From Rhodospirillaceae bacterium (GTDB lineage: Bacteria > Pseudomonadota > Alphaproteobacteria > Rhodospirillales > UBA2165): 39,563 bases of DNA. A model generated the notes under the pieces. The model did no database searches. It saw only the letters and a program-made list of their open reading frames with translations, and was not told the origin of the DNA. The stretch is taken from positions 1 through 39,563 of the forward strand of contig JABIIH010000253.1 in assembly GCA_018649245.1 (NCBI GenBank), given 5' to 3'. The translations under genes and the position numbers were made by a program. Positions 27,006 through 29,595 of the stretch are shown here, piece by piece; position 1 is the stretch's first letter, and each line of letters begins with the position of its first letter.

Positions 27006-27161
27006 AATAATATGCAGGTTCTGAAGAACCTTCCCTAGTTGGTAAATTTGGGCGTAGTTTAAGGGACCAAATGCCTTGGTGCAATTGACCTATGTTAATT
27101 GTTGATATTTGTCGCGATTCATTATGCTAATGTGGTCATTTGAAATTTGAAGGAGAAACCT

Positions 27162-27500
27162 GTGCCCAGTGATTTAACGGCTAAAGTTTGTGTGCCCTGT
27201 CAGGGAGGCATTCCGCCACTAACTTTGGCAGAAGCAGAGGCTTATTTGGTTGATACGCCAGGCTGGGAATTGTCGGAGAGTGCGACACGTCTGCGCGGTG
27301 CGTTTAAGTTCGAGGATTTTCAAACCGCCATGGATTTCGTCCAGAAAATTGGCGCAGTTGCCGAGCAGGAAGGCCATCACCCGGATATCGAGTTTGGCTG
27401 GGGTTATGCTAATATTTTAATTTACACTCATAAGATCAACGGCTTGCATGAGAACGATTTTATCCTGGCAGCAAAAATTAATGACATTGAGGGTGCTTAG
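27162..27500 (+). CDS. phhB: Pterin-4a-carbinolamine dehydratase
   Basis: CVPCQGGIPPL, EQEGHHPDI and THKINGLHENDFILAAKI. GTG 27162 follows AGGAG. Confidence 0.92.
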   Translation: MPSDLTAKVCVPCQGGIPPLTLAEAEAYLVDTPGWELSESATRLRGAFKFEDFQTAMDFVQKIGAVAEQEGHHPDIEFGWGYANILIYTHKINGLHENDFILAAKINDIEGA

Positions 27501-27976
27501 TCTTTACCCAACACATTCATCGGCTCAAGCTTGTCTATTTCGGGCGCATAGTCATTGAGTTCCAGAATAACGCCATTGGGATCACGGACAAAAACCTGAT
27601 AGAGCGGACGGTCGGCGAGTAATCGATCCCAGTAAGCAATGGAGTTTTCTCTCATATATTGAACCAAATCGGCTGATTTCTTGACCGACAAGGCAATATG
27701 GTCATCCATGCCGGTTTCGACCAAATTCTCGGTTTTCGCCTTTTCCCATTCCTTGGGTTTTTCCTTGCCCGTTTCGTATGCTGCGTCTTCAAGATCGTTG
27801 GAGTCTTTTTCGACCAGATGGATAATGGCATCGTCACCGGCATAGAGCCAATAGCCTACCGATTTAAGCGCTGGTCGTTTGCCGACTTTCAGACCTAGTA
27901 AATCGCAGAAAAAAGCGCGGGTTTCCTCCAAGCGGTCCGTGCCAATGGACACATGATCTAGTTTGTTAATTTTCAT
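27497..27976 (-). CDS. VOC (glyoxalase/bleomycin-resistance/dioxygenase) superfamily protein
   Basis: LDHVSI, IHLVE, DHIAL and FVRDPNGVILEL give a His/His/His/Glu metal-ligand pattern. Confidence 0.85.
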   Translation of the reverse strand: MKINKLDHVSIGTDRLEETRAFFCDLLGLKVGKRPALKSVGYWLYAGDDAIIHLVEKDSNDLEDAAYETGKEKPKEWEKAKTENLVETGMDDHIALSVKKSADLVQYMRENSIAYWDRLLADRPLYQVFVRDPNGVILELNDYAPEIDKLEPMNVLGKD

Positions 27977-28018
27977 GTTTCCCCTCAGTTTTTAATTTTT
28001 TTGGTCTAACTAAAATTC

Positions 28019-28042
28019 TGACAGCTATGTCTTAGCTGTCAA
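28019..28042. promoter_or_regulatory. Perfect dyad operator overlapping a minus-strand TTGACA in the VOC/deiodinase divergent promoter region
   Basis: TGACAGCTA-TGTCT-TAGCTGTCA (28019-28041). The minus strand reads TTGACA at 28042-28037, and a plus-strand TTGACA lies at 28083-28088. Confidence 0.55.
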
Positions 28043-28141
28043 CCAGATAACCAGAATTTAATCCTGGTGCCAATTTGGTTTCTTGACACTGGTAGAACCA
28101 TTTTGCACATTTCTGCTAACTTTTAATAGCGGGGTATTTTT

Positions 28142-28831
28142 ATGTCGATTGAGGTAACAGGGGAGCTTGACGTATCAGGCGTACCCGATATGAAGCCCGG
28201 TATGACGCCGGCGGATCGCAAAGTAATTTGGCTGCAGGTTGCAGATATGACCGAGCCGGAATTTGACGCCATGATGGCGGCAAATAAGGCGCGTCAAGTC
28301 AAGGTGCCTGAGCAGGGCAGCGAGGCACCGGATTTTAATCTGGATGTGCTGGACCGGGAAAAAGGACGGACCGGCGAAAAAATCAGCCTTTCAAGTTTTC
28401 GGGGTAAACCGGTCGGGCTGATCTTCGGCTCTTACACCTGACCGCCTTATCGTGATTGGGCCGTGCGCCTAAACGAAATTTACAACAGCTACAAAGATCA
28501 GGTTGAATTTCTCAGCATATATATTCGTGAAGCCCATCCGGATGACGGCTGGCGGTCCAAGAAAAACATCTTGGATGGCATTCGCTATATCGAGCCCCGG
28601 ACCGATGATGAGCGGACTGAGGTTGCTACCGTCTGCCAGCAGATGATGGAATTGCAAATGCCTATGCTGATCGATTCCATCGATAATGATGCCGAAAGCA
28701 AATATATCTCGATACCGATGCGGCTTTATCTGGCCGATGCTGACGGTAATTTAGCTTATGTCGGCGGCGAAGGGCCGTTTAACTTTAAGCCTGATGAATT
28801 TGAAGCGGCGATAAAAGAGCTAACTGCCTAA
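28142..28831 (+). CDS. Iodothyronine-deiodinase-like thioredoxin-fold selenoprotein (229 aa, Sec100 encoded by TGA 28439-28441)
   Basis: The two ORFs are in the same frame and separated only by the TGA. Read-through gives KPVGLIFGSYT-U-PPYRDWAVRLNEIY...FLSIYIREAHPDDGW...DSIDN...MRLY...YVGGEGPF, matching deiodinase motifs FGS[CA]TUPPF, YIxEAHxxDGW, ERLY and GGxGP. A SECIS-like hairpin follows. Confidence 0.9.
28450..28476 (+). promoter_or_regulatory. Putative bacterial SECIS element
   Basis: UCGU/ACGA lower stem, GA bulge, UUGGGC/GCCUAA upper stem and apical loop CGUGC (28462-28466) with GU. The loop starts 21 nt after the UGA. Confidence 0.7.
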
Positions 28832-29595
28832 TAGAGTATCCCGCCGCCATCGACCACTAAGGTTTGACCGGTCATGTGGTCACTGTCGCTGGAAGCGAGG
28901 TAGATCAGCGTGCCGGTGAGATCTTCCGCCCTGACGTGCTGACGCAAAGCCCGGGCTTCAAGCATTTTCTGACCGCGCTCGGTCGTGTTCAACTCCTCCT
29001 CATTGAGCCGACTGGTCACCAAACCATAAGCCACATTGTTGACGCGAATACCATCCGGGCCTAGCTCGGTAGCGAGGCTGCGGGTCATGGCCAAGATGCC
29101 GCCTTTCGCGGTGGTGTAATGGAGCCGGTTGGTCAGCCCGCTCATCATCGTGGTTGAGCCGATATTAATGATCTTGCCATAGTTTTGTTTCTGCATAATT
29201 GGTGTCACCGCTTTGACGCACAGAAAGGGCCCGCGGAGATTGACCGCCATCAGCTCATCCCAGGTCTCAACCGTCATTTCGGTGACCGGGACCGGCGGGA
29301 TGTTAGAGCCGATGGCCGCATTGTTGACGAGTATGTCGATGCGGCCAAACTCTTCCTTGGTAACTTCGACCATATCCCTAATTTGAGCTTCGTCCCGGAC
29401 ATCTGTCATTGTTGCCAGCGCCTTGCCGCCGGCGTCTTTGATATCTGCTACTAGATCTGAACAATCATTGAGGTCGGCACACACAACGGCAGCGCCTTCC
29501 TGGGCCAGGGCTTTGGCGTATTCGGCGCCGAGAGCCGCGCGCTCACCGTAAGCCGCACCGGTAACAATGGCGACCCGACCTTCAAGTTTTGTCAT
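28828..29595 (-). CDS. Short-chain dehydrogenase/reductase (last gene of the liv-type operon)
   Basis: LVNNAAIG, NIGS, YTTAK catalytic motif and MTGQTLVVDGG. The glycine-rich loop is atypical (TGAAYGERAALG). Confidence 0.9.
   Translation of the reverse strand: MTKLEGRVAIVTGAAYGERAALGAEYAKALAQEGAAVVCADLNDCSDLVADIKDAGGKALATMTDVRDEAQIRDMVEVTKEEFGRIDILVNNAAIGSNIPPVPVTEMTVETWDELMAVNLRGPFLCVKAVTPIMQKQNYGKIINIGSTTMMSGLTNRLHYTTAKGGILAMTRSLATELGPDGIRVNNVAYGLVTSRLNEEELNTTERGQKMLEARALRQHVRAEDLTGTLIYLASSDSDHMTGQTLVVDGGGILY

Follow-up and report, generated by a model that had tools for sequence, protein, structure and literature searches.

Outside E. coli, bacterial SECIS elements have for the most part been predicted from one sequence at a time. 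The loop in the SECIS of Moorella thermoacetica fdhA comprises 5 nt; its first and fourth bases, a G and a C, are paired around an exposed GU. This element, which is represented together with domains WHD3-4 of SelB by PDB 1WSU (cited in PMC4605307), has a stem of 6-8 bp and carries the G of its loop at a distance of some 20 nt from the UGA. In the E. coli fdhF SECIS (PMC8659212), the upper stem-loop is decisive and the lower part is lax, the loop GU is located about 20 nt past the UGA (G23, as counted from the U of UGA, corresponds to +20), and the upper stem contains a bulged U17. For the bacterial SECIS consensus (bSECIS), PMC13188914 specifies a loop of 3-9 nt, an upper stem of 4-16 bp, a distance between UGA and loop of 16-37 nt and an energy of at most -7.5 kcal/mol, with a G within the first two loop positions that is often followed by G or U; the common loop pairs bases 1 and 5. 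Bacterial deiodinase-like selenoproteins were described by Zhang, Fomenko and Gladyshev in 2005 (PMC1088965), with a SECIS predicted for a member (legend of their Fig. 7).

The hairpin that we analyzed is found at 28450-28476 of the window, which is the whole stretch of 39,563 nt under study. It is very likely an ordinary example of this known kind of element. It is part of the coding sequence just downstream of an in-frame UGA whose position is a conserved Sec/Cys site. The loop has 5 nt, with G as its second base and U as its third, the upper stem has 6 bp (5 bp conserved), and TGA and loop are separated by 20 nt. Stem length and the distance of the loop G from the UGA resemble those of the Moorella element; loop bases 1 and 4 are C and G here, in contrast to the G and C of Moorella. 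The bases at loop positions 1 and 5, which pair in the common bSECIS loop, are both C, and the 6-bp upper stem of the bSECIS comparison stands against only five pairs in the consensus of this family. With the E. coli element it shares the weight on the upper stem-loop, the lax lower part and the approximate position of the loop GU, which is located 2 nt further downstream (G+22, counted from the first nucleotide after the UGA). The bulged U is not present, the upper stem being continuous. The subregions of the hairpin, the gene and further candidates of the genome are listed in Table 1.

Table 1. Features of the deiodinase-like gene and its hairpin (coordinates refer to the window), and further likely selenoprotein genes of the genome (contig and position)
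Feature	Position	Strand	Remarks
Deiodinase-like gene	28142-28831	+	229 aa with TGA read as Sec (U100, FGSYTUPPY)
TGA	28439-28441	+	In-frame, predicted Sec codon; aligns with the Sec/Cys position of Dio2/Dio3
Spacer CCGCCTTA	28442-28449	+	Directly 3' of TGA
Spacer region including TCGT arm and GA bulge	28442-28455	+	
TCGT, 5' arm of lower stem	28450-28453	+	Poorly conserved; unpaired in RNAalifold consensus
GA bulge	28454-28455	+	Unpaired in RNAalifold consensus
TTGGGC, 5' arm of upper stem	28456-28461	+	Conserved 5-bp core is 28457-28461
Apical pentaloop CGUGC	28462-28466	+	G at loop position 2 is nt +22; predicted SelB contact
GCCTAA, 3' arm of upper stem	28467-28472	+	Arg/Leu wobble bases co-vary with 5' partners
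ACGA, 3' arm of lower stem	28473-28476	+	Paired here, variable among homologues
Methyltransferase (UIAG), L101	C224:3198	+	Likely selenoprotein
GYU protein, L102	C195:4747	+	Likely selenoprotein; no Pfam match
Redoxin (UTTC), L103	C223:12240	-	Likely selenoprotein
CMD/AhpD protein (CAYU or CNYU), L104	C44:4641	+	Likely selenoprotein
CMD/AhpD protein (CAYU or CNYU), L105	C252:5756	-	Likely selenoprotein

The deiodinase-like gene and its homologues

Translation table 11 splits the gene into two ORFs (28142-28441 and 28463-28831). When the TGA is read through, the protein matches PF00837 with 87.4 bits (cut-off 27) over residues 40-224, across the TGA. The mouse Dio3 structure 4TR3 is matched with E 8.4e-17 and a mouse Dio2 structure with E 3e-14, U100 being on the catalytic position. 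In the alignment, Dio3 residues Ser167, Thr169, Sec170, Tyr197, Glu200, and His202 (for their roles in the active site see PMC7506546) correspond to S97, T99, U100, Y127, E130, and H132, and the Dio3 motif AHxxDGW is matched by AHPDDGW; Cys168 is replaced by Tyr98, and His219 is without an aligned His. Model NF038285 (deiodinase_rel) scored 183.2 bits, below its cut-off of 250, and was covered only at positions 174-340 of 347, its C-terminal half. As in the bacterial deiodinase-like selenoproteins of PMC1088965, a member of PF00837 has UGA at the Sec site. The motif tabulated in PMC13188914 (2026) is UxxC and differs from UPPY, which is nearer to the animal SCTUPPF; we take UxxC to be the motif of a representative and not to define PF00837 selenoproteins. 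The protein is probably a selenoenzyme of the thioredoxin fold, with a putative role in redox reactions or reductive dehalogenation.

The nearest named relatives are from marine MAGs titled Rhodospirillaceae (87-89% identity). The gene was matched in 40 of 61 related genomes, including 34 of the 36 other members of the family. A TGA is inside all 75 matches listed with E <=1e-30, and it is at position 100 in each of the 72 close homologues that were fetched from these 75. A wider scan, in which 6 of 50 TGA loci come from genomes already in the family set, yielded 70 rows, 51 with TGA and 19 with a Cys codon at this position; TAA or TAG occurred in none.

The UGA-type gene has been multiplied in the family, with up to seven strong matches (G015) and four each in G008, G016, and G035. 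In the genome under study, a second UGA-type gene (C285:4183, + strand) is 57% identical and also has a CGUGC loop. A third one (C207:3814, - strand), at 28-33% identity, is distant; it has UPYC and its hairpin differs. Three distant Cys-type paralogues are encoded on C48, C101, and C117. In one database homologue (P0002), the Sec position is occupied by Trp (FGSFTWPPF); this is likely a UGA translated under a table with UGA=Trp and not a real variant.

Within 27147-29595, the gene is the only one on the + strand, being located between genes for a glyoxalase-family protein and a short-chain dehydrogenase on the - strand; its stop codon overlaps that of the dehydrogenase gene (28828-28831). Among homologues, the closest orthologues alone share this arrangement. 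The neighborhood was considered as a clue to the substrate and discarded: genes for a pterin dehydratase, a glyoxalase, and a short-chain dehydrogenase are found again near no more than the four closest of 29 homologous loci. In metatranscriptome contigs from four of five runs, where DNA carry-over was uncontrolled, seven pieces cover parts of both gene halves and none bridges the TGA or the hairpin, which proves nothing.

Fold and conservation of the hairpin

The initial annotation had described a hairpin of 10 pairs, one of them G-U, with a 2-nt bulge and a 5-nt loop carrying GU at positions 2-3, and both sequence and folding bear this out. Its start, given as 21 nt after the UGA, is correct for the loop (nt +21); the hairpin itself begins at +9. 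Upon folding of 28439-28500 with ViennaRNA, the hairpin was predicted as had been expected, with pair probabilities of 0.75-0.98. It was the MFE and centroid fold in five of six short folding windows, with energies (-8.8 to -9.6 kcal/mol) within the bSECIS limit; when 101 nt were folded, it was present together with a second, downstream hairpin. This energy is not beyond chance, with z-scores of -0.57, +0.19, -0.91, -1.49, -0.81, and +0.80 in the six windows and 23-162 of 200 shuffles being as stable as the native sequence. Shuffle means are from -5.6 to -10 kcal/mol, and the energy criterion is not discriminating. We thus discarded folding energy against shuffles as uninformative. Since the energy is at shuffle level, the single sequence alone is no proof of a SECIS. 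The hairpin had been taken to support recoding independently of the protein motif; it is the homologues that provide such independent support. A scan of the window at Rfam gathering thresholds gave no match.

The probability of the hairpin is 0.99 with up to 90 nt of downstream sequence. Once at least 119 nt downstream are folded, a 9-bp helix with 28552-28560 outcompetes it at equilibrium. The hairpin then has a pair probability of 0.05 in a fold extended to 28560 and, in the comparison with the family, a probability of 0.08-0.15; the family medians are 0.70 at 119 nt and 0.21 at 200 nt. All nine pairs of the competing helix form here, whereas the other 29 homologues listed can form 2-8 of them. 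As the helix is private to this sequence, we treat it as a chance occurrence; a regulatory switch was rejected for want of conservation.

For the homologues, 66 distinct 51-nt windows from 72 sequences were aligned without gaps. RNAalifold selects exactly five pairs (+16 to +20 with +26 to +30), with a consensus energy of -7.09 kcal/mol including covariation. These pairs are formed in 96.7% of 330 cells, and both sides are changed in 47 of them. None of 500 shuffles reached this level of pairing, and slid registers were paired to 21-55%. Two of five measures for the whole structure were at shuffle level (double-change pairs, 324 of 500; pair types, 119 of 500). Pair +16:+30 is realized as CG (23), GC (21), AU (12), UA (4), GU (3), and UG (1), with two unpaired cases; pair +19:+27 as GC (57), AU (6), GU (1), and UG (1), with one unpaired case. 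The other three of the five core pairs show little variation or one-sided changes only.

Because kinship inflates covariation counts, a tree of the 72 sequences was built from codons outside the hairpin. On this tree, +16 changes 9 times, +30 changes 11 times, and both change jointly 12 times; among 219 variable sites, it is +16 that co-changes best with +30. Positions +19 and +27 change 5 times each and 6 times jointly. The wobble positions of Ala+7, Val+8, and Arg+9 (codons counted from Sec) have entropies of 0.12, 0.00, and 0.64 bits compared to 1.08-1.94 bits at the other 44 four-fold columns, and they change 1, 0, and 5 times on the tree, where 43 columns beyond the hairpin change 16-33 times (median 25). 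The loop is CGUGC in 63 of the 66 homologues, CGGGC in two and UGUGC in one; G+22 is invariant (66/66), the next base being U (64) or G (2). Both traits ascribed to bacterial SECIS elements, a location directly 3' of the Sec codon and a G near the start of the loop, are thus present. The sixth upper pair is formed in 40 of the 66 homologues, the four lower-stem pairs in 41, 43, 65, and 30, and none of them shows coupling on the tree. The lower 4-bp stem with its GA bulge was therefore rejected as a conserved feature, being poorly paired in the homologues and unpaired in the RNAalifold consensus, and is likely dispensable. Of the structure as originally drawn, the upper stem of 5-6 bp and the loop have persisted. 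The covariation among UGA homologues that the initial annotation led one to expect is found as repeated compensatory changes in this upper stem. Judging from the homologous sequences, selection acts on the upper stem-loop at the RNA level; it is conservation and covariation, and not energy, by which the hairpin exceeds chance.

A loss of the hairpin in Cys homologues had also been anticipated, and it is mostly absent there: G+22 plus at least four of five pairs in register occur in 43 of 51 distinct TGA sequences compared to 2 of 18 distinct Cys sequences, which are distant (30-44% identity), come mostly from one clade of Planctomycetota and therefore do not provide a matched test of loss. A looser hairpin test gave 46/51 and 2/18. 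Val at +8 was found in none of the eight Cys-type database proteins aligned, which indicates that the residue follows the RNA and not the reverse.

CGUG loops in unrelated selenoprotein families

The genome was scanned for an open-frame TGA followed by a 5-bp stem with a loop of the type N-G-U-N'-N. This resulted in 12 matches for 11,010 TGA codons (8 with CGTG), 6 for 8,751 TAA (1 with CGTG) and 3 for 5,028 TAG (2 with CGTG). As the motif was derived from the hairpin under study, the matches to the gene in the window and to its paralogue are circular. Three further CGTG matches are in genes for a methyltransferase (UIAG), a CMD/AhpD protein (CAYU) and a redoxin (UTTC), families that are tabulated as selenoproteins with these motifs in PMC13188914; the remaining three are unsupported. 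The methyltransferase family has CGUGY in 15 of 15 distinct sequences (loop at +17, codon phase 2), the CMD family CGUG(A/C) in 22 of 23 sequences (at +25, phase 1), and the redoxin family CGUG(C/G) in 23 of 26 sequences, with CGGGC in two more (at +21, phase 3). The CGUGC loop of the deiodinase-like gene is in phase 3. The C-G-U-G-N loops of the three other families, which are unrelated, thus jointly cover all three reading phases.

CGUG is not universal, as three other candidates of the genome have C-GGC-G, C-GAU-G, and possibly CGAG loops. The GYU protein, which we take to resemble YHS-domain selenoproteins in view of the motif table of PMC13188914, is included in Table 1. SelD is itself a selenoprotein in the family (TGA within 29 of 32 family matches). 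The hairpin of Sec-type SelD, GCACC-GUC-GGUGC, is identical in all eight cases examined, its loop being C-GUC-G and not CGUG. The bare pattern TGA-gap-CGTG was useless (2,669 matches), and a scan by coding potential for additional UGA genes was noisy, TGA being no richer than TAA or TAG.

An intraloop pair C+21:G+24 was not accepted as a proven feature: there are no compensatory changes in 66 sequences (one has U-G), and a pair is also possible at these positions in 10 of 18 Cys sequences. With both bases frozen and no compensatory change, base-specific reading is equally possible. On balance we lean slightly towards a SECIS dialect of this lineage, consisting of a C-G-U-G-N pentaloop on a stem of at least 5 bp, which would have been reached independently in four unrelated families and in all three phases. 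The C and G at loop positions 1 and 4 would pair around an exposed GU that is read by the SelB of the lineage, with a strictness sufficient to fix Val or Gly at Sec+8. No CGUG-type bacterial loop was found among the literature titles searched, and we do not claim the loop as unpublished.

Selenocysteine machinery and competing explanations

In this genome, selA and selB are adjacent and both score above cut-off, with winged-helix domains in SelB; the contig carrying them ends shortly past selB. This assembly, which is 68.8% complete, yielded neither a tRNA-Sec above the cut-off of the covariance model nor selD. Of the 68 calls made by relaxed ARAGORN, mostly permissive, three were tRNA-SeC with low scores; these three were not counted because the covariance model had found none above cut-off. 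Of the 11 congeners, 10 each have tRNA-Sec, selA and selD, their tRNA-Sec being canonical (71-80 bits). Two genomes of genus g2 (100% and 90% complete) are devoid of the deiodinase-like gene, selA, tRNA-Sec, and selD. Among 44 outside genomes with the TGA gene, selA is present in 41, tRNA-Sec in 36 and either of them in 43; among genomes with the Cys gene, selA/tRNA-Sec was found in one of six, these being the ones tested of 18 available.

The selB gene of this assembly has no stop codon (L013:8899-11415; C51:10898-13416). A frame of 839 aa runs to the contig end, into an ORF with its own ATG. SelB ends at 641 aa in three congeners, in two of which the same downstream ORF is a separate gene. 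The cause may be an error of local assembly or an in-frame fusion of recent origin. The part downstream of SelB has no Pfam match. Presumably, it resembles a glycosyltransferase.

The hairpin might be a by-product of a conserved A-V-R-L peptide combined with codon bias, UGA being made Sec by another signal. The energy at shuffle level would fit this, as would the three core pairs with little or one-sided variation and the genome-wide preference for GCC among Ala codons (41%) and for CGC among Arg codons (45%). However, Val+8 is encoded by GTG in 70 of 70 cases, while GTG accounts for 26% of the Val codons in the genome. Moreover, variation is unrestrained at the other four-fold columns of these genes, the wobble base of Leu+10 follows the first base of codon +6 in all of four Watson-Crick combinations, and the eight Cys-type proteins do without the Val. 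This explanation, largely refuted by the co-changes on the tree, is very improbable.

Alternatively, the TGA could be a true stop, in a pseudogene or between two ORFs, the hairpin having a role in pausing, in RNA stability, or in a new start of translation from the GTG at 28463. Such a GTG start is indeed within the loop, and public databases contain many half-length proteins of 125-146 aa; the failure to find tRNA-Sec and selD in this assembly and to bridge the TGA by an RNA contig would also agree. However, the TGA coincides with the catalytic Sec/Cys site and is retained as TGA in each of the 72 close homologues. In the wider scan, it is present in 51 of 70 rows and replaced by Cys in the other 19, never by TAA or TAG, and the TGA gene tracks the Sec machinery. 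The same loop follows UGA in three unrelated families, in two of which the GUG is out of frame. We consider a true stop extremely improbable. We attach just as little weight to a SECIS that directs cysteine or another residue via a non-canonical pair of tRNA and SelB. Such systems in some bacteria are cited in PMC8124441, and tRNA-Sec is missing from the list of genes found in this assembly, yet selA is encoded in this genome and the congeners have the canonical tRNA-Sec along with selA and selD.

We thus consider it very likely (probability about 0.95, based on sequence comparison) that the hairpin at 28450-28476 is a functional bacterial SECIS, predicted to bind SelB, and that UGA 28439 is read as selenocysteine. 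This was the proposal of the initial annotation, and it is supported by covariation, frozen wobble sites, the loss with the Cys codon, and co-occurrence with SelA/tRNA-Sec. By analogy to E. coli and Moorella (PMC4605307, PMC8659212, PMC13188914), the stem-loop of 5-6 bp would be near the mRNA entrance when the A site holds the UGA, and the loop G (+22) and its neighbors would be contacted by SelB.GTP.Sec-tRNA(Sec) through its winged-helix domains. SelB would deliver Sec-tRNA, Sec would be inserted at residue 100, and the ribosome would then unwind the hairpin and translate R-D-W-A-V-R-L-N-E. PMC8124441, PMC1794560, and PMC10778597 leave the SECIS reading unchanged.

Neither this type of element nor the protein family is new, both dating back in the literature to 2005 or before, and the field is unchanged. 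The annotation is corrected to one selenoprotein gene instead of two short ORFs. In addition, the family provides an unusually clean, covariation-backed model of a bacterial SECIS outside E. coli, with five pairs, a five-base loop, and no bulged U. As the selected positions are mapped base by base, an experiment on SelB specificity is easy to design. If the dialect is real, it may allow a selenoprotein finder specific for this lineage and provide a compact, bulge-free SECIS for engineering.
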